Origin: Escherichia coli
Lineage (GTDB): Bacteria > Pseudomonadota > Gammaproteobacteria > Enterobacterales > Enterobacteriaceae
Reading direction: 5' to 3' (one strand)
NCBI RefSeq assembly: GCF_044324875.1
Contig: NZ_CP172185.1
DNA length: 64,000 nt
The notes under the pieces were generated by a model, which worked only from the letters and a program-made list of their open reading frames with translations, ran no database searches and was not told the origin of the DNA. This document shows, in pieces, positions 43,442 through 56,628 of the stretch (the first letter of the stretch is position 1; each line of letters starts with the position of its first letter). A program made the position numbers and the translations under genes.

Positions 43442-43726
43442 ATGCCCTTAGCCGCCAAACTTACCGACAAAGGCACCCAGCACGACGGTTATTACGAGAC
43501 CGTCATCATCGCCGGGTCATCCACCGTTTTTATCGATGGTCTCCCCGCAGCCCGCCAGGGAGATCCGCTGACGCCGCATGCTAAACCGAAGCATCCCCCT
43601 CATCCCCGTAAAATCGCCAGAGGTTCTTCAACCGTCTTTATTGACGGTCTGCCCGCCGCCAGAAGCGGTGATGCTGTTGACTGCGGCGGCGTGGTTATCG
43701 GTGGCGGTACGGTAAATATAGGCTGA
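43442..43726 (+). CDS. PAAR-domain protein (type VI secretion spike tip)
   Basis: 94-aa ORF with two literal PAAR motifs in a duplicated segment (SSTVFIDGLPAARQGD / SSTVFIDGLPAARSGD); strong RBS aggagg. Confidence 0.8.
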   Translation: MPLAAKLTDKGTQHDGYYETVIIAGSSTVFIDGLPAARQGDPLTPHAKPKHPPHPRKIARGSSTVFIDGLPAARSGDAVDCGGVVIGGGTVNIG

Positions 43727-43744: not shown

Positions 43745-46150
43745 ATGTCCTTAAAAGGTCTTCACTTTACGCTGGAGGTTGACGGCCAGGAGCCGGACAC
43801 CTTTGCAGTGGTGCATTTCAGGTTAATCCAGAACCAGTCTTATCCGTTTGTGATGAGTGTGGATGTTGCCAGCGACTCTTTTATGCAGACGGCGGAGATG
43901 CTGCTGGAGAAGAAGGCGACGCTGACCATCTGGCAGGGCGTCATCCCGCTGCGTTATGTCACCGGCGTGGTGGCGGGTTTTGGCATGCAGGAGAACAATG
44001 GCTGGCAGATGCGTTACCACCTGCGTATCCAGCCGCCGTTATGGCGGTGCGGGCTGCGGCAGAACTTCCGTATCTTCCAGCAGCAGGATATCCGGACGAT
44101 ATCGGCCACGTTACTGAACGAGAACGGCGTCACGGAGTGGACGCCGCTGTTTTATGAGGACCATCCGGCGCGGGAGTTCTGTGTCCAGTACGGGGAGTCG
44201 GACCTGGCGTTTCTGTCCCGGCTGTGGGCGGAGGAGGGTCTTTTCTTCTTTGAGCGGTTTGCGGCGGACAGTCCGGAGCAGAAGCTGACGCTGTGCGACG
44301 ATGTGGCGGGGCTGTCACAGGCGGGGGAGTTTCCGTTTAACCCGGACACATCGGCAGGTGCGGAGACGGAGTGTGTCAGTATGTTCCGTTATGAGGCGCA
44401 TGTCCGCCCGTCATCGGTGCAGAGCCAGGATTACACCTTTAAGGTGCCGGACTGGCCGGGGATGTATGAGCAGCAGGGTGAGAACCTGAACGGACAGCTG
44501 GAGCAGTATGAGATATTTGATTATCCGGGAAGGTACAAGGATGAACAGCACGGCAAGGATTTCACGCTGTACCAGATGGAGAGCCTGCGCAGTGATGCGG
44601 AAAAGGCCACAGGGCAGAGTAATTCGCCGAAGCTGTGGCCGGGAACGCGGTTTATGCTGACGGGGCATCCGCAGAAGATGCTGAACCGTGAATGGCAGGT
44701 GGTACAGAGCATACTGTCAGGAAACCAGCCGCAGGCGCTGCACGGCAGCCAGGGAAAGGGAACCACGCTGGGCAATCAGTTAGAGGTGATACCGGCGGAC
44801 CGGACGTGGCGTCCACGGCTGCAAAACAAACCGAAGGTGGACGGGCCACAGAGCGCCATCGTCACCGGTCCTGCGGGAGAGGAAATCTTCTGCGATGAAC
44901 ATGGACGGGTACGGGTGAAGTTCCACTGGGACCGTTATCACGGGATGACGGAGGCGAGTTCATGCTGGGTGCGGGTATCGCAGGCGTGGGCGGGGCCGGG
45001 GTTCGGTAACCTGGCGATACCACGGGTGGGTCAGGAGGTGATAGTGGACTTCCTGAACGGCGACCCGGACCAGCCGATAATCATGGGGCGGACGTACCAT
45101 GAGGACAACCGTTCGCCGGGCGACCTGCCGGGAACGAAGACGCAGATGACCATCCGGTCAAAAACCTATAAAGGAAGCGGATTTAACGAGCTGCGGTTTG
45201 AAGACGCCACCAGTAATGAGCAGGTGTATATCCATGCCCAGAAGAACATGGATACGGAGGTGCTCAACGACCGGACAACGGATGTGAAACATGACCATAC
45301 GGAAACCATCGGGAACGACCAGAAGATAACGGTGGTGAAGGGGCAGACGGTTCAGGTCGGGACCAGAAAAGAAGGGGGCCACGACCAGAGTATCACGGTG
45401 GCGAACGACCGGTGCATCACGGTACGTAATGACCAGACGCTGCAGGTGACGAATGACCGGACGGTGAGCGTGAGTAATGATGACGGCCTGTACGTCAGAA
45501 ATGACCGTAAAGTGACGGTGGAAGGGAAGCAGGAGCATAAGACGACGGGGAACCATATCAGTCTGGTGGAGGGAAAGCACAGCCTGGTGGTGAAGGGGAA
45601 CCTGGCGAGGAAGGTGAGTGGCGCGCTGGGGATAAAGGTGGACGGGGATATCGTGCTGGAGAGCAGCAGCCGGATAAGCCTGAAGGTGAGTGGCTCGTTT
45701 GTGGTCATCCATTCAGGGGGCGTGGACATCGTCGGGCCGAAAATCAATCTCAATAGCGGCGGTAGTCCGGGGACGCCGGTGCCGGCGCTGCAACCGGCGG
45801 TGCTGAAGACACTGGGGGATGAGAAGAGTGGTGATGGCAGTGATTCCGGAGAAGAAAATGAAGACTCTGGAGGGAACTGCGTGACCGGAAGTGGTGGTGA
45901 TGATCGAGGTGACGATGAGGATGAACCTGAAAAATATACTCTCCAGTTCCATTTTACAGACGATGACGGGATACCGTATTCAGAAACCCGCTACATTGCC
46001 TTCTTTGAGGATGGCACGCAGACCCGCGGAGAAACGGATGAAGAGGGGTATACAGAGCGTTTTTTTGTATCTAGCAAACATGAAATTAAAGTGAAGTTGT
46101 TATTTGCGAATGATGATTTTCTCTCAATGGAAGGACACTATGGACGATAA
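43745..46150 (+). CDS. vgrG: type VI secretion spike protein VgrG with acidic C-terminal extension
   Basis: 801-aa ORF; gp27/gp5-like N-terminal region, repeat-rich beta-helix, then Asp/Glu-rich tail. Confidence 0.9.
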   Translation: MSLKGLHFTLEVDGQEPDTFAVVHFRLIQNQSYPFVMSVDVASDSFMQTAEMLLEKKATLTIWQGVIPLRYVTGVVAGFGMQENNGWQMRYHLRIQPPLWRCGLRQNFRIFQQQDIRTISATLLNENGVTEWTPLFYEDHPAREFCVQYGESDLAFLSRLWAEEGLFFFERFAADSPEQKLTLCDDVAGLSQAGEFPFNPDTSAGAETECVSMFRYEAHVRPSSVQSQDYTFKVPDWPGMYEQQGENLNGQLEQYEIFDYPGRYKDEQHGKDFTLYQMESLRSDAEKATGQSNSPKLWPGTRFMLTGHPQKMLNREWQVVQSILSGNQPQALHGSQGKGTTLGNQLEVIPADRTWRPRLQNKPKVDGPQSAIVTGPAGEEIFCDEHGRVRVKFHWDRYHGMTEASSCWVRVSQAWAGPGFGNLAIPRVGQEVIVDFLNGDPDQPIIMGRTYHEDNRSPGDLPGTKTQMTIRSKTYKGSGFNELRFEDATSNEQVYIHAQKNMDTEVLNDRTTDVKHDHTETIGNDQKITVVKGQTVQVGTRKEGGHDQSITVANDRCITVRNDQTLQVTNDRTVSVSNDDGLYVRNDRKVTVEGKQEHKTTGNHISLVEGKHSLVVKGNLARKVSGALGIKVDGDIVLESSSRISLKVSGSFVVIHSGGVDIVGPKINLNSGGSPGTPVPALQPAVLKTLGDEKSGDGSDSGEENEDSGGNCVTGSGGDDRGDDEDEPEKYTLQFHFTDDDGIPYSETRYIAFFEDGTQTRGETDEEGYTERFFVSSKHEIKVKLLFANDDFLSMEGHYGR

Positions 46151-46523
46151 TAATCAAACTTCTGGACAACCAAAGCCAGAGCCAGAAGAATGTGTGAAAG
46201 AGCAAAAAATAACTGATCATTTTAAAATAATGATTGATAAGGCTCGTAAGGCACAAAAGTTGGTTTTGATAAAAAGAGCAGATGATCTTTTGAGATGGGG
46301 AGCACAGGAGGAATATGATTTCAGTAAGATCTTTGGTGTTAAAGGAAATAAGGAGGTTAATATAAGAAAATATGGACATAATACAGGTAGGCGCATGAAT
46401 GCTAGATTTCTTATGATGGATGGTGTGAGAAGATTAATGATTATAGCTAATGATTTAACAATGAGCAGTTTTATAAATTATATGGATTTGCCCCTATATT
46501 TCCAGACATCTGTTATCACTTAA
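46140..46523 (+). pseudogene. AT-rich gene translationally coupled to vgrG (candidate T6SS cargo/adaptor), 3' end interrupted by IS2
   Basis: ATG at 46140 overlaps the vgrG stop; ORF runs into the IS2 terminal repeat at 46483; removing IS2 and one TSD copy restores a 137-codon ORF ending at 53243. Confidence 0.6.
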
Positions 46524-47059
46524 CCCATTACAAGCCCGCTGCCGCAGATATTCCCGTGGCGAGCGATAACCCAGCGCACTATGCGGATGCCATTCGTTAT
46601 AATGCTCGAACGCCTCTGCAAGGTTCTTTGCTGCCGTTAACCCGTCTGGTTTGGGCATGATACTGATGTAGTCACGCTTTATCGTTTTCACGAAGCTCTC
46701 TGCTATTCCGTTACTCTCCGGACTCCGCACCGCCGTGTTCTTCGGTTCAAGTCCCAACATCCGGGCGAACTGGCGTGTTTCATTAGCCCGGTAGCATGAA
46801 CCATTATCGTAACCGGCTCATTTAAACCGTCTGGTCTGTTTCCTCCGGCTCTACAAAAATAATGTCCATCATTTTTAATGGACACTATCGTATGAAACAC
46901 CGGACCTGGATCACTGAAGCTTTACGTCTTCACTTTGAAGAACATTTACCCCGGGTTGTGGCCGGGCGTCGCCTGGGTGTACCAAAATCAACAGTTTGTA
47001 GTATGTTCGTGCGCTTTCGGAGAGCTGGCCTTTCGTGGCTGCAAAATGGCATCTGAATC

Positions 47060-47160
47060 GATCGCAGTTTGGCATTCGAATCGATCATGATTTGGCATCC
47101 ATCTCCGATCACAGTTTGGCATCACAATCGATCACGATTTGGCATGCTTCCGATCATTGA
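47060..47160 (+). repeat. IS21-family subterminal multiple repeats (tttggcat motifs spaced about 20 bp apart)
   Basis: five or six copies of gatc...tttggcat upstream of istA; inverted copies (atgccaa) at the other end near 49640-49650. Confidence 0.6.
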
Positions 47161-47241
47161 TTGGCATCCTGCCAGTCACTCCGGGAATTAACTCTTTTCA
47201 CCACAGTCTCCATTGCCGTGTTTAAACCAGTGGAGACGTCA

Positions 47242-48807
47242 ATGTCCAGAAAGAGAAAATCCAGGAGCACTATGGAAACCTGTTTTAAGATCCTTCAGCT
47301 CAAGTTCGACAAGAAGCTGACTAACCGTTGTATCGGACTGACGTTACACATCAGCGCCTCAACCGTTTTTGAGGTTCTTGCCCGCTTCAAAGCCTCTTCT
47401 CTGTCATGGCCATTACCTGCTGATATATCCCATGACACGCTGGAGAAACTCATTTTTCCGCCCAAAGACACCTTTGCATCAGAGCTTGTAATGCCTGACA
47501 TGTTGTACTTCGATACGGAAATGAGAAAACCAGGTGTGACGCGGCAACTGTTGTGGATGGAATACAAGGCACAGGCGGGTAACAAAGCGATGGGATACTC
47601 GCACTTCTGCCGTTGCTACCGGGAGTGGAAAAAAACGCGACGTCTCTCCATGCGCCAGGAGCATCGTGCCGGCGAAAAGCTTTTTATCGACTTCTGTGGT
47701 CCTACGGTTCCTGTTATTAATCCGGACACCGGTGAGATACGCCGCGTGGCAATCTTCGTGGCCGTAATGGGGGCGTCCAACTATACCTACGTTGAAGCGT
47801 GCGAAGGTCAGGACATGATGTCATGGTTAAATGCCCACAGCCGTTGCCTGACCTTCCTGGGCGGCGTACCGAAGCTGCTCATCCCCGATAACCTCAGAAG
47901 CGCAGTGAAAAAGGCCGATCGATATGAGCCTGTCATCAACGACAGTTATCAGGCACTGGCTGAGCACTATGGCACGGTTATCATCCCGGCCCGACCACGC
48001 AAACCTAAAGATAAACCAAAAGCAGAAAACGGCGTCCTCATCGTTGAACGATGGCTTCTTGCCCGCATCCGTAATGAAACCTTCCACACGCTCAGGGCGC
48101 TGAATGCGCGCCTTAGGGAGTTACTGACAGACATGAATAACCGGCCAATGAAGGGGTACGGCAATCAAACCCGTGCAGAACGCTTCCGCATACTGGATGC
48201 GCCAGCACTCTCTCCGCTGCCTCTGGCACCTTATGAATACACGGAATACAAAGCTGTGAAGGTTGGCCCTGACTACCACGTTGAATATGCCCGTCACTGG
48301 TACTCCGTTCCACACGAACTGGTCGGTCAGCGTCTGTCACTGAAGGCGGGGCAGTCGGTGGTACAGCTCTGGCACAAGGGGCAGTGTGTGGCGCAACATC
48401 CGCGCAGCACACATGAATATAAACACACAACCAATCCGCTTCACATGCCAGAGCGCCACCGGCAGCACGGGACATGGACACCGGAACGCCTGATCGAGCA
48501 GGGAAAACGTACGGGCCCGTCCACAGGCCGGGTGGTTGAATCCATGCTGAAGGCAAAACCCCATCCGGAACTGGCTTATCGTGCAGTTCTGGGGCTGCTG
48601 GCACTTCAGAAAAAATACGGCCCGGAACGGCTGGAAAAGGCCTGTTACGTTGCCCTGCACTATAACGCCCCTGACAGACGCTTTATCGACAATCTGCTGC
48701 GTCACCATCGGGAGAACCTGGAGCTTCCATTATCCCGCCAGGGCGAACAACATCCGGCATATGCTTCAGAGCATGAAAACCTGCGTGGTCCGGGCTACTA
48801 CCACTGA
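47242..48807 (+). CDS. istA: IS21-family transposase IstA
   Basis: about 521 aa from MSRKRKS with N-terminal HTH and integrase-like core; ORF track begins at 47161. Confidence 0.85.
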   Translation: MSRKRKSRSTMETCFKILQLKFDKKLTNRCIGLTLHISASTVFEVLARFKASSLSWPLPADISHDTLEKLIFPPKDTFASELVMPDMLYFDTEMRKPGVTRQLLWMEYKAQAGNKAMGYSHFCRCYREWKKTRRLSMRQEHRAGEKLFIDFCGPTVPVINPDTGEIRRVAIFVAVMGASNYTYVEACEGQDMMSWLNAHSRCLTFLGGVPKLLIPDNLRSAVKKADRYEPVINDSYQALAEHYGTVIIPARPRKPKDKPKAENGVLIVERWLLARIRNETFHTLRALNARLRELLTDMNNRPMKGYGNQTRAERFRILDAPALSPLPLAPYEYTEYKAVKVGPDYHVEYARHWYSVPHELVGQRLSLKAGQSVVQLWHKGQCVAQHPRSTHEYKHTTNPLHMPERHRQHGTWTPERLIEQGKRTGPSTGRVVESMLKAKPHPELAYRAVLGLLALQKKYGPERLEKACYVALHYNAPDRRFIDNLLRHHRENLELPLSRQGEQHPAYASEHENLRGPGYYH

Positions 48808-48823
48808 CAGAAGGAACAACAGT

Positions 48824-49579
48824 ATGAGTGATAACCTGTTAAACAAACTGACCCAACTGAAACTCCCGGCGATGGCCGGGAGCCTGATACGGCAGCGGGA
48901 AACGCCTCAGACCTACGACGAACTGTCGTTCGAGGAAAGGCTGACGCTGCTGGTTGATGACGAGCTTCTGAGCAGGGAAAACAGCCGTGTGGCACGGTTG
49001 AGAAAAAATGCCGGCCTGAAATACCAGGCAACACCGGAAGGGCTGCGCTATCCGGCCTCAAGAGGTCTGCGGGCTGAACAGATGAGAGAACTGCTGAACG
49101 GCCACTACATAACCCACAGGAAAAACCTGCTGATAACCGGTCCGACAGGATGTGGCAAGAGCTGGATAGCCAATGCGCTGGGCGAACAGGCATGTCGACA
49201 GAAACACAGCGTCCGGTACTGTAGAACCGGGCGATTACTGGAACAACTGGCTCAGGGACGTGTTGATGGCAGCTGGCTGAAATATCTGAAACAGTTGCAA
49301 AAAATACAGGTTCTAATCCTGGACGATCTGGGGCTGGAACAGTTAAGTAACGCCCAGTGTAATGACCTTCTGGAGCTCATAGAGGATCGTTACGGACAAA
49401 GCAGCACGATAGTGGTAAGCCAGTTCCCGGTAGATAAATGGCATGGTCTGATGGAGAACCCAACAACAGCAGATGCCATCCTGGACAGACTGGTACATAA
49501 CTCACACCGAGTGGTCCTTCAGGGAGAGTCACTGAGGAAAAATCCCCCGGTAGTGGAAAGCAGCGAAAAAACGCGTTAA
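48824..49579 (+). CDS. istB: IS21-family ATP-binding helper IstB
   Basis: 252-aa ORF with Walker A GPTGCGKS and Walker B LILDDLG. Confidence 0.9.
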   Translation: MSDNLLNKLTQLKLPAMAGSLIRQRETPQTYDELSFEERLTLLVDDELLSRENSRVARLRKNAGLKYQATPEGLRYPASRGLRAEQMRELLNGHYITHRKNLLITGPTGCGKSWIANALGEQACRQKHSVRYCRTGRLLEQLAQGRVDGSWLKYLKQLQKIQVLILDDLGLEQLSNAQCNDLLELIEDRYGQSSTIVVSQFPVDKWHGLMENPTTADAILDRLVHNSHRVVLQGESLRKNPPVVESSEKTR

Positions 49580-50182
49580 AAAGCGGTAGAAAAAGTTAAG
49601 TTCCCGGTTGATCGAATGGATGCGAATCGCTGATCGGACTTCGATGCCAATCCGTGATCGAATAGAGCGGAATACGCAGTGGCCTTTGCCCGCAGGCATG
49701 TCGGAGCAGGAACTTGATGCCTGCCTTTACGGACAATTTTCCACGGTACCAGTCGTACGTCCTGAAAGCACCGTTATATCCGAAGCCCCCGTGGTAAAAA
49801 AACGTCCCCGGCGGCCCAACTTCCCTTATGAGTTTAAAATCGCCTTAGTGGAGCAGTCACTGCAGCCCGGAGCCTGTGTGGCGCAGATCGCCCGGGAAAA
49901 CGGAATCAACGATAACCTGCTCTTCAACTGGCGCCATCAATACCGGAAAGGTGGCCTGCTGCCTTCCGGAAAAAATATGCCGGCACTGCTTCCCGTGACG
50001 TTAACGCCGGAGCCGGATAATAAAATCCCGGCCCCCGCACAGGAACCAGAGCAGATAAATACACCGTCCGACAGTCTGTGTTGTGAGCTGGTTCTGCCGG
50101 CCGGAACTCTCAGGCTTAAAGGTAAACTGACGCCGGCGTTATTACAGACACTTATCCGCGAAATAAAAGGGAGCAGCCACTG

Positions 50183-50530
50183 ATGATATCTCTCCCTGCA
50201 GGTTCGCGTATCTGGCTGGTTGCAGGTATCACCGATATGCGAAATGGCTTTAACGGCCTGGCATCAAAAGTTCAGAACGTCCTGAAGGATGACCCGTTCT
50301 CCGGACACCTGTTCATCTTCCGCGGACGCCGGGGTGACCAGATAAAAGTGTTGTGGGCTGACAGTGACGGACTGTGCCTCTTCACCAAACGCCTGGAGCG
50401 GGGCCGCTTCGTCTGGCCAGTCACCCGTGACGGCAAGGTGCACCTTACTCCGGCTCAGTTATCCATGCTTCTTGAAGGTATCAACTGGAAGCACCCGAAA
50501 CGAACGGAACGCGCTGGAATCCGCATATAA
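50183..50530 (+). CDS. IS66-family TnpB (orf2)
   Basis: 115-aa ORF recognised as IS66 family Orf2. Confidence 0.85.
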   Translation: MISLPAGSRIWLVAGITDMRNGFNGLASKVQNVLKDDPFSGHLFIFRGRRGDQIKVLWADSDGLCLFTKRLERGRFVWPVTRDGKVHLTPAQLSMLLEGINWKHPKRTERAGIRI

Positions 50531-50549
50531 CCCGTTGTAAAGTGAGGAT

Positions 50550-52121
50550 ATGGACACCTCACTTGCTCATGAGAACGCCCGCCTGCGGGCACTGTTGCAG
50601 ACGCAACAGGACACCATCCGCCAGATGGCTGAATACAACCGCCTGCTCTCACAGCGGGTGGCGGCTTATGCTTCCGAAATCAACCGGCTGAAGGCGCTGG
50701 TTGCGAAACTGCAACGTATGCAGTTCGGTAAAAGCTCAGAAAAACTTCGTGCAAAAACCGAACGGCAGATACAGGAAGCACAGGAGCGAATCAGCGCACT
50801 TCAGGAAGAAATGGCGGAAACGCTGGGTGAGCAATATGACCCGGTACTGCCATCCGCCCTGCGCCAGTCTTCAGCCCGTAAACCGTTACCGGCCTCACTT
50901 CCCCGTGAAACCCGGGTTATCCGGCCGGAAGAGGAATGCTGTCCTGCCTGTGGTGGTGAACTCAGTTCTCTGGGATGTGATGTGTCAGAGCAACTGGAGC
51001 TTATCAGCAGCGCCTTTAAGGTTATCGAAACACAACGTCCGAAACAGGCCTGTTGCCGGTGCGACCATATCGTGCAGGCACCAGTACCTTCAAAACCCAT
51101 TGCACGCAGTTATGCCGGAGCGGGGCTTCTGGCCCATGTTGTCACCGGGAAATATGCAGACCATCTGCCGTTATACCGCCAGTCAGAAATATACCGTCGT
51201 CAGGGAGTGGAGCTGAGCCGTGCCACACTGGGGCGCTGGACAGGTGCTGTTGCTGAACTGCTGGAGCCGCTGTATGACGTCCTGCGCCAGTATGTGCTGA
51301 TGCCCGGTAAAGTCCATGCTGATGATATCCCCGTCCCGGTCCAGGAGCCGGGCAGCGGTAAAACCCGGACAGCCCGGCTGTGGGTCTACGTCCGTGATGA
51401 CCGTAACGCCGGTTCACAGATGCCCCCGGCGGTCTGGTTCGCGTACAGTCCGGACCGGAAAGGTATCCATCCACAAAATCACCTGGCCGGTTACAGCGGT
51501 GTGCTTCAGGCCGATGCTTACGGTGGTTACCGGGCGTTATACGAATCCGGCAGAATAACGGAAGCCGCGTGTATGGCTCATGCCCGGAGAAAAATCCACG
51601 ATGTGCATGCAAGAGCGCCCACCTACATCACCACGGAAGCCCTGCAGCGTATCGGTGAACTGTATGCCATCGAGGCAGAGGTCCGGGGCTGTTCAGCAGA
51701 ACAGCGTCTGGCGGCAAGAAAAGCCAGAGCCGCGCCACTGATGCAGTCACTGTATGACTGGATACAGCAACAGATGAAAACACTGTCGCGTCACTCAGAT
51801 ACGGCAAAAGCGTTCGCATACCTGCTGAAACAGTGGGATGCACTGAACGTGTACTGCAGTAATGGCTGGGTGGAAATCGACAACAACATCGCAGAGAACG
51901 CCTTACGGGGAGTGGCCGTAGGCCGGAAAAACTGGATGTTCGCGGGTTCCGACAGCGGTGGTGAACATGCGGCGGTGTTGTACTCGCTGATCGGCACATG
52001 CCGTCTGAACAATGTGGAGCCAGAAAAGTGGCTGCGTTACGTCATTGAACATATCCAGGACTGGCCGGCAAACCGGGTACGCGATCTGTTGCCCTGGAAA
52101 GTTGATCTGAGCTCTCAGTAA
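50550..52121 (+). CDS. IS66-family transposase TnpC (orf3)
   Basis: 523-aa ORF with leucine-zipper N-terminus, CxxC zinc motif and IS66 DDE core. Confidence 0.85.
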
Positions 52122-52151
52122 ATATCAATACGGTTCTGACGAGTCGCTTAC

Positions 52152-52750
52152 CCATTATCCGTCAGCCACTCCACTGGAGACGACGGAAGATCGTTGCCGA
52201 AGCGGCGTTCCACCGCTCCCAGCATGACGTCCTGTACTGTTTCACTGTTGAAGCCGCCGGTAGTGACCGCCCAGTGCAGTGCCTCACGATCACAGCAGTC
52301 CAGCGCGAACGTGACACGCAGTCTCTCTCCGTTATCACAGCAGAACTCGAACCCGTCAGAGCACCATCGCTGATTGCTTTCTTTCACGGCCACTCTGCCT
52401 GTATGTGCCCGTTTCGATGGCGGTACAGCAGGTTTTCGCTCAAGCAACAGCGCATTCTGGCGCATGATCCGGTAAACACGTTTGGCATTGATCGCAGGCA
52501 TACCATCAAGTTCTGCCTGTCTGCGAAGCAGCGCCCATACCCGACGATAACCATACGTTGGCAGCTCTCCGATAACATGGTGTATACGGAGAAGCACATC
52601 CGTATCATCAGTGTGACGACTGCGGCGGCCATCCATCCAGTCATCGGTTCGTCTGAGAATGACGTGCAACTGCGCACGCGACACCCGGAGACAACGGCTG
52701 ACTAAGCTTACTCCCCATCCCCGGGCAATAAGGGCGCGTGCGCTATCCAC
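52152..52750 (-). pseudogene. insD: IS2 insD, N-terminal two-thirds, truncated by the IS66-family insertion (C-terminal part at 46494-46808)
   Basis: translation recognised as IS2 InsD up to ...VEWLTDNG, where the IS66-family end begins. Confidence 0.85.
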
Positions 52751-53073
52751 TTTTTTGCCCGTCCATATTCAACGGCTTCTTTGAGGAGTTCATTTTCCAT
52801 CGTTTTCTTGCCGAGCAGGCGCTGGAGTTCTTTAATCTGCTTCATGGCGGCAGCAAGTTCAGAGGCAGGAACAACCTGTTCTCCGGCGGCGACAGCAGTA
52901 AGACTTCCTTCCTGGTATTGCTTACGCCAGAGAAATAACTGGCTGGCTGCTACACCATGTTGCCGGGCAACGAGGGAGACCGTCATCCCCGGTTCAAAGC
53001 TCTGCTGAACAATTGCGATCTTTTCCTGTGTGGTACGCCGTCTGCGTTTCTCCGGCCCTAAGACATCAATCAT
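52708..53073 (-). CDS. insC: IS2 InsC (orfA)
   Basis: 121-aa ORF from [18 protein letters not shown] recognised as IS2 InsC. Confidence 0.9.
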
Positions 53074-53310
53074 CTGTTCTCCAATGACTAGTCTAAAAAC
53101 TAGTATTAAGACTATCACTTATTTAAGTGATACTGGTTGTCTGGAGATTCAGGGGGCCAGTCTATTATACAGGTTGTAATGAATTTGCAGCATTCGTCAG
53201 CCCAAGTAAGGATATGCCCTATATAATTAACATAGGAATTTGAGTATAGAGATGGCAAAAAAAATCCAGTAACGGGAAAGGATTCTCATGTTGCTACTTT
53301 ATGTCATGAA

Positions 53311-53613
53311 ATGTCTCATATTCAGTGGTATTATGGGGATAATAAAAAAGGTGGTATGTGGTCACAGGATTATACAACTACTGATAAATATTCAACGTGC
53401 AAAGAGGATGAAGTTTCATATGACGAACATATCCGTATTGCAACTAAACTGATCTCTAAACAAAAAGATCAAATATTCGAGAATGCATATAACATAGAAA
53501 GATATTTTGAAATAAGATTAATTGAAAGTGAGATAGACTCGATTAATGATGAAATATTAAGCAATTCAGTTAAGAAAAAAATAGCGGAATTAGAAAAAGC
53601 ACTTCTCCATTAA
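53311..53613 (+). CDS. hypothetical protein (100 aa), AT-rich
   Basis: ORF in the AT-rich segment between IS2 and the H-repeat fragment. Confidence 0.3.
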   Translation: MSHIQWYYGDNKKGGMWSQDYTTTDKYSTCKEDEVSYDEHIRIATKLISKQKDQIFENAYNIERYFEIRLIESEIDSINDEILSNSVKKKIAELEKALLH

Positions 53614-53636
53614 CTAATAAGTCGAGAAATATATTA

Positions 53637-53900
53637 ATGCTGCAAGCTATAAAAAAAATCATAATAATGACAATCGTAAATATTATATTTTTCTATTCCT
53701 TTCAATCGACTGCGGATGAAATGGTTTTAATAAAAAAATACGGGTTTGGGCTTGAGAGAGATATCAAAGGAAGGCCATTAATTTATCCTATCGAAAATTA
53801 TGATGAGTGTAAGAAAAAATGCAATCATATGAATTATATAGCGGATGTCAATGCTCAATTAGCTATGAGTAAAAAAATAACAGGATTTTTGCTAACATAA
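53637..53900 (+). CDS. hypothetical small exported protein (87 aa), AT-rich
   Basis: N-terminal hydrophobic signal-like segment ending STA, cysteines in the mature part. Confidence 0.35.
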   Translation: MLQAIKKIIIMTIVNIIFFYSFQSTADEMVLIKKYGFGLERDIKGRPLIYPIENYDECKKKCNHMNYIADVNAQLAMSKKITGFLLT

Positions 53901-53953
53901 CCTTTACTAACAATAGCTCTACCACGTATTTTTTTTCTAAATATTACCTACCT

Positions 53954-54457
53954 ATGAAAGTAAAAGATGGAAAAGGAGATGAATATGATGCGATATGCAA
54001 AAAACCATTCAGAATCAACTCTGGGAATATCACGTTGGACTACTTAGGTGGTTCATGTCCTTTTGAAATTAATACGAATCCTGAACGGTGGAATACTATT
54101 AAACCAGGTCGTAGTTTTTTGTTGAGTATAACCTTAAATGATATGTATGCCTTTATACCAGGAGATAATTATTATTTTATAAAATCATCTGGCTATAAAT
54201 TTGTTAATGACAAGTGGTTTACACTCAAATCAATCAATAATATTTTTCTTTATTTTTTAAATTTAAAAATTAATTGTGCTGATGATTTTTTTGATATTAA
54301 TAATTTTACTACATGTGATAATTTGTTATTAGATGAAAAAAAACACTTTTTTATTAATCAGTTATGGGCAATTGAGGATGAAAAAAATTCTATTTACGTC
54401 ACCCCTGATGAAATTTCTATAAGTATAGACGGCGATAACTTAAAGTTGCCATATTAG
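53954..54457 (+). CDS. hypothetical protein (167 aa), AT-rich
   Basis: ORF ending immediately before the H-repeat fragment. Confidence 0.35.
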   Translation: MKVKDGKGDEYDAICKKPFRINSGNITLDYLGGSCPFEINTNPERWNTIKPGRSFLLSITLNDMYAFIPGDNYYFIKSSGYKFVNDKWFTLKSINNIFLYFLNLKINCADDFFDINNFTTCDNLLLDEKKHFFINQLWAIEDEKNSIYVTPDEISISIDGDNLKLPY

Positions 54458-54476
54458 GAATCTGTGAAAGAACAAG

Positions 54477-54965
54477 GTGCGCCGCTTTTTTGTACTAAAT
54501 AATTCGCATTTTAGTCACGGCAGAGAAGAAATCCATCTTCATATTGTTTGCGATGTCCCTGATGAACTTATTGATTTCACGTTTGAATGGAAAGGTCAGA
54601 AGAAATTATGCGTGGCAGTCTCCTTTTGGTCAATAATAGCAGAACAAAAGAAAGAGCCAGAAATGACGGTCAGATATTATATCAGTTCTGCTGATTTAAC
54701 CGCAAAAAAGTTCGCCACAGCGATACGAAATCACTGGCACGTGGAGAATAAGCTGCACTGGCGTCTGGACGTGGTAATGAACGAAGACGACTGCAAAATA
54801 AGAAGAGGAAACGCCGCAGAATTATTTTCAGGGATACGGCACATCGCTATTAATATTTTAACGAATGATAAGGTATTCAAGGCAGGGTTAAGACGCAAGA
54901 TGCGAAAAGCAGCTATGGACAGAGACTACCTCGCGTCAGTCCTTGCGGGGAGCGGGCTTTCGTAA
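54477..54965 (+). pseudogene. H-repeat-associated (ISAs1-family) transposase, C-terminal fragment, 5'-truncated
   Basis: ...[46 protein letters not shown]... matches the C-terminus of H-rpt proteins such as YdcC; N-terminal part absent. Confidence 0.75.
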
Positions 54966-55073
54966 TCTTGCCCTGGCGATCGAATAGCGCAGATGACGGT
55001 GCTCTAAATTTGAATCTAATAAGCCGGTGTTATTTTTCATCCACTATTAAAATCTTGACACAACGAGGCAACA

Positions 55074-55535
55074 ATGAAAAAAAGCAAAAAAATTAAAACA
55101 ATGAACCATCAAAATAATAGCGGGATACAAAATCAACCAGACTATCACATCGAAATAGAAAGAAAAAATATGGTAAGATTGCTTGATGAACGTATTGATA
55201 AAGTTTACGGTTCATTGCTAGGACCAATGAAAAAGAAAAATATAGATAAAATACGTCATTTTACACTTGATGTAATGGTGTTTATTCTTGACACGAACCC
55301 TCGTGTTTGTAATAAATTATCCAGGGAAATAATATCTTTAGCGCAAAATACCTTCATTGAAAAAAACGTTAATTTTTCAACTTTTAATAATGAACAGCAT
55401 AGAATAAGGGAGTATATGAATGAAGTGGTGGAATACGATGGTTTACATGGGATAACCCCGAGATATCTTTTGTTCGTGCATCTTTTGGCCTTTTTGTCAA
55501 AATGGAAACAAAAGGTGATCATGAACATACACTAA
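55074..55535 (+). CDS. hypothetical protein (153 aa), very AT-rich
   Basis: ORF with no recognisable motif. Confidence 0.3.
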   Translation: MKKSKKIKTMNHQNNSGIQNQPDYHIEIERKNMVRLLDERIDKVYGSLLGPMKKKNIDKIRHFTLDVMVFILDTNPRVCNKLSREIISLAQNTFIEKNVNFSTFNNEQHRIREYMNEVVEYDGLHGITPRYLLFVHLLAFLSKWKQKVIMNIH

Positions 55536-55992
55536 GTGACACATTTCTTCAGATTGTTGAGTGTGTTAATTTAAATATAGGACTTATTGCAAAAGATGAA
55601 CTGGTAAAAATCATCAATAAACACTTTATGTAAAAATATACTTCTGTATGAAGTTATAATAATACAGTGAAAATCATCAAATTATTAATTAATGATGCTC
55701 TTTGTTATTATTTACTTTTTACAATTGAATCAGGGGTTTTATTTTCTGTAGTAAAGTTGTATTTTTGCTAAAGGTGATAAAGTACAGGTGTTTATATTAA
55801 ATTAGAACTCCCCTTAATTATCATAAATACAAAGAGGTGAAAACATGCGGGGGTGTTTTCGTTAAATAATACCATGGTGAATTAATAACATGCTATCAGT
55901 GATATACATATTTTCTCTAACAAAGTTTTAGTAAAATTACGCGTAGTAAGAAGATTCCGCCAAAGATTCCATATAATAATATTAAGGTTGTT

Positions 55993-56628
55993 ATGAATAA
56001 AGGTAATAGATTACAACAGTTAGAAGATGCGTGTCGTGATATTATTAAAATTAACATGTGGTATGAACTCCCCGATTATGTATTTTTTTCAATATCTGAC
56101 ACCATCGATGGGACGAGTGATGAATTCGCAATAAATGTGTATAAAAATATCGATAAAAGTCTTCTTGAAATATTATTGCATCCATCTGTTTTACTGTCAG
56201 TTGTTGAGTCCTTACAAAGTAATACTATAGCTGAGTATATCGTGAAATTGTCTGAAATAGAGATGAATTATGACGACTTGCTAATATCGGATGTTAAATC
56301 ATGTCTTTTTATCAACTATGGATTCAATAACAGTGAATCGGTTGCGCTATTTAATAAGATTTACCGCGAATTAAAAGATATTGTAAAATCATCAAGAGTA
56401 CATATAGATCATGAGAAAGATATTTTTGATGGCCTTAATCAAATCTTGGCTTTTTCCGATAATAATAAACATGAGTATTTTTTATATATAAAGGCATATT
56501 GGCTCAGTTTATACTTTTGTGAAATTTCACAGAACGTGAGAGAAAGAGATAAGTTGTCATTTTATTATAATGAATTTTCTGTCCGATTTCCTAATGTTGT
56601 CCTATATCCGTCATGCTACAAATTGTAA
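55993..56628 (+). CDS. hypothetical protein (211 aa), very AT-rich
   Basis: ORF with no recognisable motif. Confidence 0.35.
   Translation: MNKGNRLQQLEDACRDIIKINMWYELPDYVFFSISDTIDGTSDEFAINVYKNIDKSLLEILLHPSVLLSVVESLQSNTIAEYIVKLSEIEMNYDDLLISDVKSCLFINYGFNNSESVALFNKIYRELKDIVKSSRVHIDHEKDIFDGLNQILAFSDNNKHEYFLYIKAYWLSLYFCEISQNVRERDKLSFYYNEFSVRFPNVVLYPSCYKL

Follow-up and report, generated by a model that had tools for sequence, protein, structure and literature searches.

Probable remains of a type VI secretion effector-immunity module with a predicted M35 peptidase and a propeptide-related immunity protein in Escherichia coli

Introduction

The metallopeptidase VgrG2b of Pseudomonas aeruginosa acts in the periplasm and is neutralized there through complex formation with PA0261, a protein which carries a signal peptide and acts in a disulfide-dependent manner (PMC6899460). 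In Escherichia coli BCE049, an M35-peptidase from a type VI secretion system (T6SS) effector locus decreased the survival of E. coli only when it was fused to a PelB leader, i.e., when it was sent to the periplasm (PMC7904677), and in E. coli PAR the peptidase M35(PAR), AKO63_2955, was found to be toxic, with relief of the toxicity upon co-expression of AKO63_2955 and AKO63_2956 (PMC10673891). The locus described here belongs to the same context. It is contained in a stretch of 64,000 nucleotides (nt) of E. coli contig NZ_CP172185.1 (assembly GCF_044324875.1), referred to as the window in the following, and consists of three AT-rich open reading frames (ORFs) between a copy of the insertion sequence (IS) IS2 and a fragment of an H-repeat element.

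A first-pass annotation had regarded these ORFs as possible uncharacterized immunity genes or orphan toxin modules, such as those displaced in Rhs loci. As judged from the observed gene identities, lesions, synteny, folds, and profile homologies, the region very probably represents the inactivated remains of one single T6SS effector-immunity module, whose toxin would have been inhibited in a propeptide-like manner, on an orphan PAAR-vgrG island reaching from yncG to yddH. The chromosomal context is of the E. coli type, with the order ansP, yncG, island, yddH, and nhoA. Nor does the term "uncharacterized" fully apply, since experiments have been published on an orthologous toxin (PMC7904677) and on a paralogous pair of toxin and immunity protein (PMC10673891).

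Results

Three open reading frames derived from two genes

The three AT-rich ORFs are present on the plus strand as previously described and code for 100 amino acids (aa; 53311-53613), 87 aa (53637-53900), and 167 aa (53954-54457). The start of the region at position 53165 is indeed the first base past the right end of IS2 (53164). The GC content amounts to 0.26-0.31 over positions 53200-54600, compared to approximately 0.55 in the adjoining block of IS elements and 0.5 in core genes. The lengths of the ORFs are far beyond chance, because about 8% of random codons would be stops at the local base composition (own calculation), and their predicted coding character is confirmed by homologues. 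They do not constitute three separate orphan genes, as had been assumed, but are pieces of two genes, as evident from their alignment to the intact locus of E. coli 042. This collinear and uninterrupted locus is annotated to encode a PAAR protein, TssI/VgrG, a 263-aa "peptidase M35," and a 273-aa hypothetical protein, followed by an ISAs1 pseudogene truncated at its 5' end and by genes for hypothetical proteins of 186 and 211 aa and for YddH; its BLAST alignment with the window breaks at positions 46482 and 53164. The 042 effector has the accession WP_000342577.1, and the intact 273-aa protein has the accession WP_001544554.1. The features of the window which correspond to the two genes are listed below, together with the evidence used (HMM, hidden Markov model; L numbers denote the loci used for comparison).

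46140..46482, plus strand: 5' fragment of the M35 (aspzincin) effector gene, codons 1-114; identical to 042 (L001 5664-6006), effector HMM positions 1-116
46483..53164, minus strand: IS2, 1331 base pairs (bp) in total; junction sequences, target duplications, and BLAST breakpoints against 042
53165..53613, plus strand: 3' fragment of the M35 effector gene; alignment to 042, effector HMM positions 114-137 and 141-223 in two different frames
53637..54457, plus strand: immunity gene, 273 aa when intact, frameshifted; one A missing relative to the 042 gene, immunity HMM, homologues
53637..53714, plus strand: Sec signal peptide of 26 aa with predicted cleavage between STA and DE; read from the sequence
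53871..53877, plus strand: A7 tract (A8 in the intact allele), site of the frameshift; comparison with 042

In addition to the IS2 insertion, the effector gene shows a deletion of 5 bp between positions 53236 and 53237 relative to 042. The 100-aa ORF represents residues 164-263 of the peptidase and stops at the native stop codon; it begins at Met164 within the HEMSH motif, directly past the zinc-binding His162 and the catalytic Glu163. Split by IS2 and shifted by the 5-bp deletion, the effector gene is dead in the window. The immunity gene differs from that of 042 solely by the single missing A. The 87-aa ORF covers residues 1-80 of its product plus seven aberrant residues, the 167-aa ORF covers residues 107-273, and the two frames of the window match positions 1-90 and 91-287 of the immunity HMM contiguously. 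Full-length homologues of 39-41% identity span the frameshift site, which is located between two predicted strands of a beta-sandwich (residues 71-80 and 83-92) and cuts off most of the protein from its signal peptide. The immunity gene is therefore dead here as well.

These data bear directly on the proposal that three independent modules, i.e., displaced toxin tips and orphan immunity genes, precede the H-repeat in the same way as in Rhs loci. Several features of the neighborhood are consistent with such an arrangement: a fragment of ISEc1 follows 55 bp downstream of the ORFs, ydcC is among the matches of this fragment, the same chromosomal site of strain K-12 holds rhsE and ydcC, and the immunity gene of strains CFT073 and ATCC 25922 occurs orphan-like behind a different, shorter M35 gene. 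However, the pieces found in the window join into exactly two genes, each with one or two lesions compared to 042, the 100-aa ORF terminates at the native stop codon of the cargo gene, and the region contains neither Rhs nor contact-dependent inhibition (CDI) sequences nor a displaced toxin tip. Moreover, no further copy of the effector or immunity family was detected by the family HMMs in the 64-kb window. An origin from independent modules is thus very unlikely, and the base-by-base comparison with the intact locus already refutes it for the window. What remains of the original proposal is the presence of T6SS toxin and immunity material beside an H-repeat fragment and the derivation of the signal-peptide ORF from an immunity-type protein, whereas the notion of three modules that are orphan or displaced does not hold. 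An Rhs orphan array was also rejected as a candidate, as the fragments reassemble into a cargo effector gene and an immunity gene free of Rhs sequence, and readings as phage-related or anti-phage defense genes were discarded for lack of PADLOC or PHROGs matches.

A predicted zinc endopeptidase as effector

As judged from its sequence and fold, the effector is predicted to be a zinc endopeptidase of MEROPS family M35, the type members of which exhibit Lys-specific endopeptidase activity. The residues of its HExxH motif (H162, E163, and H166) are invariant across 19 aligned homologues, as is D183 in the motif GGMxTxD, which aligns with the Asp of GTDD in proteins resembling AsaP1 of Aeromonas salmonicida. 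The putative third zinc ligand motif is degenerate compared to the GTxDxxYG type, and a Tyr-Gly pair does not occur at the canonical spacing. The predicted fold is that of an aspzincin, with classical aspzincins as the best structural matches, and precomputed matches to the Pfam family PF14521 (Aspzincin_M35) are carried by two distant homologues of the effector. A weak Pfam match to the NleD-like Peptidase_M91 family (i-E 0.027) was dropped in favor of the aspzincin assignment on the evidence of the fold and of profile alignments by hhalign. The catalytic part is preceded by a helical N-terminal domain of approximately 110 aa. The effector does not contain a signal peptide, and the aligned N-termini of the family are hydrophilic and not conserved.

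Conserved pairing of effector and immunity genes

Homologues encoded beside vgrG genes were found in Salmonella, Buttiauxella, and other E. coli loci. In every context examined, comprising five other locus types besides that of 042 and the window, a vgrG gene of about 800 codons is followed by an effector gene overlapping its end and then by a gene without a Pfam match. The effector gene of the window starts 11 nt inside the 3' end of vgrG (46140-46150), as it also does in 042 and in all homologous loci, which suggests translational coupling of spike and cargo. The downstream genes of Salmonella, a second E. coli type, and Buttiauxella code for signal-peptide proteins of 228-276 aa with 39-41% identity, while those of the E. 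coli T6SS-1 clusters code for proteins with 28-35% identity (hmmsearch E-values of 2e-41 and 6e-33). Divergence is faster among the immunity proteins than among the effectors, for which identities of 63% (Salmonella), 57% (second E. coli type), and 56% (Buttiauxella) were obtained, with further homologues in more distant enterobacteria.

Two of these loci have been studied experimentally. The "T6SS effector locus1" of BCE049 (FQU84_13600-13645) is the same locus as that of the window, and the "M35-peptidase of module 5" is encoded by FQU84_13640. For the PAR pair, the primers in the supplement of PMC10673891 encode MSNDRG..., ...RYFEID (stop), and ...LYSSMQ (stop), and map with few strain differences to locus L009, which contains the genes for a 262-aa paralogue of the effector and a 308-aa downstream protein belonging to the family of the 273-aa immunity protein. 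Because co-expression of AKO63_2956 relieves toxicity and the primers map onto these paralogues, one paralogous pair has been shown to consist of toxin and immunity protein, and one orthologous toxin has been shown to be active in the periplasm (PMC7904677, PMC10673891). The 273-aa family can now be named as the probable immunity partner of VgrG-linked aspzincin toxins.

The immunity family and its relation to protease propeptides

The signal-peptide-like N-terminus noted earlier for the 87-aa ORF proved to be a Sec-type signal peptide (MLQAIKKIIIMTIVNIIFFYSFQSTA, followed by DE after the predicted cleavage site), which is conserved across the family: a hydrophobic N-terminal segment is present in 42 of 54 members at a strict hydrophobicity threshold, cleavage sites are of the AxA type, and an AlphaFold2 (AF2) model places an N-terminal helix at residues 2-21. 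Four Cys residues (121, 141, 214, and 227) are conserved as well. A periplasmic location of the 273-aa protein is predicted because of this signal peptide and the four cysteines. In the AF2 model (predicted local distance difference test, pLDDT, 86.8; predicted template modeling score, pTM, 0.77), the signal helix is followed by a beta-sandwich (residues 35-190, approximately), and the C-terminal region is partly helical. A word-indexed search with the 273-aa protein retrieved homologues from E. coli only, and an exhaustive HMMER search was needed to recover the family; it yielded 88 related representatives, about 55 of which are full-length at 250-315 aa. The family comprises at least some 55 clusters at 50% identity in Enterobacteriaceae, and the gene itself was detected in 639 of the 5426 complete E. 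coli genomes, among them those of CFT073, UTI89, APEC O1, and BCE049. A 273-aa member of at least 90% identity is also recorded for Salmonella enterica subsp. arizonae and indica, which implies that E. coli and Salmonella have exchanged the module recently.

A protein homologue search with a 49-aa piece of AsaP1 retrieved nothing but a fragment of 74 aa. For comparison with AsaP1-like precursors, 80 loci were therefore collected by a contig scan, and 70 full-length precursors were aligned for hhalign. Residues 67-182 of the immunity profile aligned with residues 20-123 of the precursors with a probability of 96.9% and an E-value of 1.8e-10, while the effector profile matched the precursors at residues 259-337 (E-value 1.6e-11), with coinciding HExxH motif, Asp ligand, and NAxxxEY motif. 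The controls were negative, with probabilities of 0.5% for the reversed immunity profile and 0.2% for the immunity against the effector profile. Within the precursor of approximately 345 aa, residues 20-123 belong to the propeptide, because the mature AsaP1 enzyme is the C-terminal half of about 172 aa. A Foldseek search of the immunity model against AFDB50 retrieved an uncharacterized enterobacterial family, multi-domain proteins named "Lysine-specific metallo-endopeptidase," and one protein with a BsuPI inhibitor domain. These profile comparisons indicate homology between the beta-sandwich core of the immunity protein and the propeptide by which AsaP1-type aspzincin zymogens are inhibited. 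Among the loci collected, that of A. salmonicida subsp. salmonicida ATCC 33658 (L026) did not yield an intact AsaP1 precursor ORF in the first extraction pass, despite a 100% match to the 49-aa query, and the AsaP1 gene of this subspecies may be disrupted; the final extraction recovered ORFs from 77 of the 80 loci.

Since propeptides of proteases often serve as intramolecular chaperones, homology to a propeptide would also fit a folding chaperone or a co-secreted activator in place of an immunity protein. Such a role seems highly improbable, as a signal peptide is found on the 273-aa protein and none on the effector, which would place the two proteins in different compartments of the producer, and as the paralogue AKO63_2956 relieves toxicity when co-expressed (PMC10673891). 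An immunity function thus remains the preferred assignment for the 273-aa protein.

Allele variation across strains

Homopolymer tracts of 6 nt or more occur 12 times in the intact immunity gene of 822 nt (L001 6479-7300), three of them being A8 and one T8, and all indels found in this gene among ten complete genomes are confined to these tracts. The exact 87-aa product of the A7 allele is encoded on 522 contigs, compared to at least 1000 for an exact copy of the intact 273-aa protein, and further frameshift variants are also common. In strains 2021CK-01784 (L002 5664-7299) and BCE049 (L014 8186-9772), the effector gene is intact and the immunity gene is present as the A7 allele. This genotype of intact toxin and broken immunity gene suggests that either the island is silent or the frameshift is suppressed. 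Overall, the pattern is interpreted as that of an acquired, AT-rich module in decay, with weak selection acting on it.

Two further strain-specific observations concern the same gene. In SCU-122, it shows nine homopolymer deletions, probably due to long-read sequencing errors. In CFT073 (L015 7205-9785) and ATCC 25922 (L018), of B2, the immunity gene is degraded and is preceded by other small genes together with a different and shorter gene for a "peptidase M35" of 200 aa; it behaves there as an orphan behind a replaced effector.

Homopolymer indels are typical of long-read data, as seen in SCU-122 with its nine deletions, and the 1-nt and 5-bp lesions of the window might accordingly be taken for sequencing or assembly errors in genes which are intact apart from the IS insertion. 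This appears unlikely, because the A7 allele recurs in many independent assemblies (the 522 contigs mentioned above) and in RefSeq genomes of different lineages, the 5-bp deletion (missing CGCAA) is located off any homopolymer, and a third deletion, of 1 nt in the 186-aa gene, fits a general decay; besides, IS2 inactivates the effector gene regardless of the smaller lesions.

An alternative explanation for the spread of the A7 allele would be that full-length immunity protein is still produced via -1 ribosomal or transcriptional slippage on the A7 tract (AGU AAA AAA AUA), or that the homopolymers act as a phase-variation switch. As read from the sequence, a -1 shift on the A run ahead of the rare AUA codon would restore the sequence SKKNNRI exactly, the allele is common and stands beside an intact effector gene in 2021CK-01784 and BCE049, and the confinement of all indels from the ten genomes to such tracts, of which the gene contains 12, would be compatible with switching. 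Still, no stimulatory element is present, and an A7 tract is short for efficient slippage, while several indels that are incompatible with one another occur in other strains and the effector gene is affected by indels, too, which speaks for decay rather than switching. As the effector is destroyed in the window in any case, slippage or switching appears improbable, and the decay of an acquired module is retained as the explanation of the lesions.

Insertion sequences and neighboring genes

The remaining features of the island relevant here are as follows.

43442..43726, plus strand: PAAR protein gene, 94 aa, intact; ORF and T6SS PAAR annotation in the collinear 042 locus
43745..46150, plus strand: vgrG/tssI, 801 aa, intact; TIGR03361 match with an E-value of 1.7e-179 and 042 annotation
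54513..54977, plus strand: 5'-truncated ISEc1 (ISAs1 family, H-repeat) fragment, 3' third of the transposase gene; DNA identity and NF033564

The IS2 copy in the effector gene has the ends TGGATTTGCCCC... and ...GGGGGCCAGTCTA and is flanked by a 5-bp target duplication (TTATA) at positions 46478-46482 and 53165-53169. It is interrupted itself at positions 46809-52151 by a block composed of ISCro1 (IS66 family) and ISSso4 (IS21 family), which is flanked by the 8-bp duplication CCATTATC, and its two parts add up to exactly 1331 bp; the names of the IS elements were taken from the annotations of matching records. The effector gene thereby harbors a three-level nest of IS elements (46483-53164). 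The full nest was not found in any complete E. coli genome of the collection, with a best coverage of 76%. A 3.9-kb query starting at 53100 was covered to 80% or more by matches in 175 complete E. coli genomes, and every match started at position 53164.

The ISEc1 piece shows 95-97% DNA identity to copies of ISEc1, including ydcC and yhhI, from position 54513 to approximately 54977, and must be regarded as a fragment rather than a functional element. The C-terminal H-repeat transposase fragment recognized previously was recovered: the ORF at 54477-54965 (162 aa) matches positions 201-314 of the 314 positions in the ISAs1 profile NF033564 (E-value 7.5e-34). The GTG start codon of this ORF at 54477 is fortuitous, because the ISEc1 DNA homology begins only at 54513. 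Consequently, the AT-rich ORFs do not end exactly where the H-repeat begins, as had been stated, but are separated from it by the gap of 55 bp between the stop codon at 54457 and the start of the ISEc1 homology.

Two further AT-rich genes are located between the ISEc1 fragment and yddH (55074-55633 and 55993-56628), corresponding to the 186-aa and 211-aa genes of 042. The former is affected by the 1-nt deletion near position 55424 in the window, and the latter is intact. Their proteins show no significant matches in Pfam, NCBIfam, PADLOC, or PHROGs, and neither has a signal peptide; the 211-aa protein is named "aminopeptidase" in some sources without visible support. These genes could represent orphan immunity genes. 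In the O145 strain RM10425 (L020 2929-3156), pptA follows the ISEc1 fragment in their place, as in K-12, and a 71-aa gene replaces them in B2 strains. The segment from the H-repeat to yddH is thus a variable slot.

Discussion

In an intact module, the 263-aa effector would be loaded on the VgrG spike, possibly via the C-terminal extension of VgrG, and would be injected into the periplasm of a neighboring cell to exert its toxicity there. The 273-aa protein would be exported by its Sec signal peptide to the periplasm of the producer as the cognate immunity protein, where it would bind the incoming protease and occlude the active-site cleft in trans, as the propeptide does in cis. Such a propeptide-like cleft occlusion in trans is the most likely mode of inhibition, as suggested by the homology of the immunity core to the AsaP1-type propeptide. 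With a slight preference, the pair may even be viewed as a zymogen split into two genes, in which the toxin is derived from an AsaP1-like catalytic domain and the immunity protein from its propeptide, the latter now working in trans in the periplasm. The searched literature contained no paper linking aspzincins with type VI secretion or an intracellular proteinase inhibitor with T6SS immunity, and none on a propeptide ancestry of the immunity family, as judged from titles and abstracts for the papers on propeptides. This ancestry is the one new element of a module that is otherwise an ordinary degraded copy of a known kind.

Four points weigh against this interpretation. The match of the effector to PF14521 is weak (i-E 0.005, 17.7 bits) and covers residues 113-168 only. 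The 273-aa protein has no match in Pfam, NCBIfam, PADLOC, or PHROGs, nor any sequence or profile match in the PDB. The evidence for neutralization concerns the paralogue AKO63_2956 and not the 273-aa protein of the window itself. Finally, several strains carry an intact toxin gene next to a frameshifted immunity gene, which is difficult to reconcile with an active pair if the system is not silent in them.

In terms of annotation, three apparent hypothetical genes are reduced to two pseudogenes of a known T6SS module, as an example of how AT-rich acquired genes with many homopolymer tracts produce spurious orphan ORFs. The homology to the AsaP1 propeptide provides a testable mechanism of inhibition and an evolutionary origin for the immunity family. 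If this should hold true generally, protease propeptides would be a source of immunity proteins, and the inhibitory interfaces would be predictable from zymogen structures. The frequent genotype with intact toxin and broken immunity genes raises the question whether the island is ever fired.

A view on the known systems shows how the module of the window relates to them. It shares the neighborhood ansP-yncG...yddH-nhoA with Rhs/H-repeat arrays such as rhsE-ydcD-ydcC of K-12, and an ISEc1/H-repeat remnant borders it, but it contains a VgrG cargo effector and a cognate immunity gene instead of an Rhs core or displaced tip. The intracellular proteinase inhibitor Ipi of Bacillus subtilis (BsuPI domain, PDB 3ISY), which is cytoplasmic and targets a serine protease, shows no detectable sequence match to the immunity protein.

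The VgrG2b/PA0261 system resembles the one described here in pairing a periplasmic zinc metallopeptidase of a T6SS with a periplasmic immunity protein. However, the toxin of VgrG2b is fused to VgrG, whereas the effector of the window is encoded separately as a cargo protein and is of the classical aspzincin type; no VgrG2b entry was retrieved in PDB sequence searches with it. The immunity protein also appears to be about twice the size expected for PA0261, as judged from the description of the latter as a "small ORF" (PMC6899460). The E. coli PAR pair is closer, with a paralogous effector of about 30% identity, an immunity protein of 28-35% identity, and the same gene order, but it resides in a T6SS-1 cluster behind a VgrG with a DUF2345 domain, which mediates loading (PMC10673891), whereas the VgrG of the window lacks DUF2345 and has a different C-terminal extension.

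Module 5 of BCE049 represents the same locus with the same genes (PAAR, VgrG, peptidase M35, and immunity gene) upstream of yddH. Its effector gene differs from that of the window by 3 substitutions in 792 nt and is intact, whereas that of the window is broken by IS2 and the 5-bp deletion; the downstream gene carries the same A7 frameshift, and the text of PMC7904677 does not include an immunity test of it. As regards the proposed mechanism of inhibition, the closest counterpart is AsaP1 of A. salmonicida (PDB 2X3A). AsaP1 is synthesized as one secreted polypeptide and activated by removal of the propeptide, whereas two genes are present in the island, with a signal peptide on the propeptide-like part only. 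Compared to AsaP1, the module has two extra parts, namely the helical N-terminal domain (about 110 aa) of the effector and the C-terminal region (about 80 aa) of the immunity protein.

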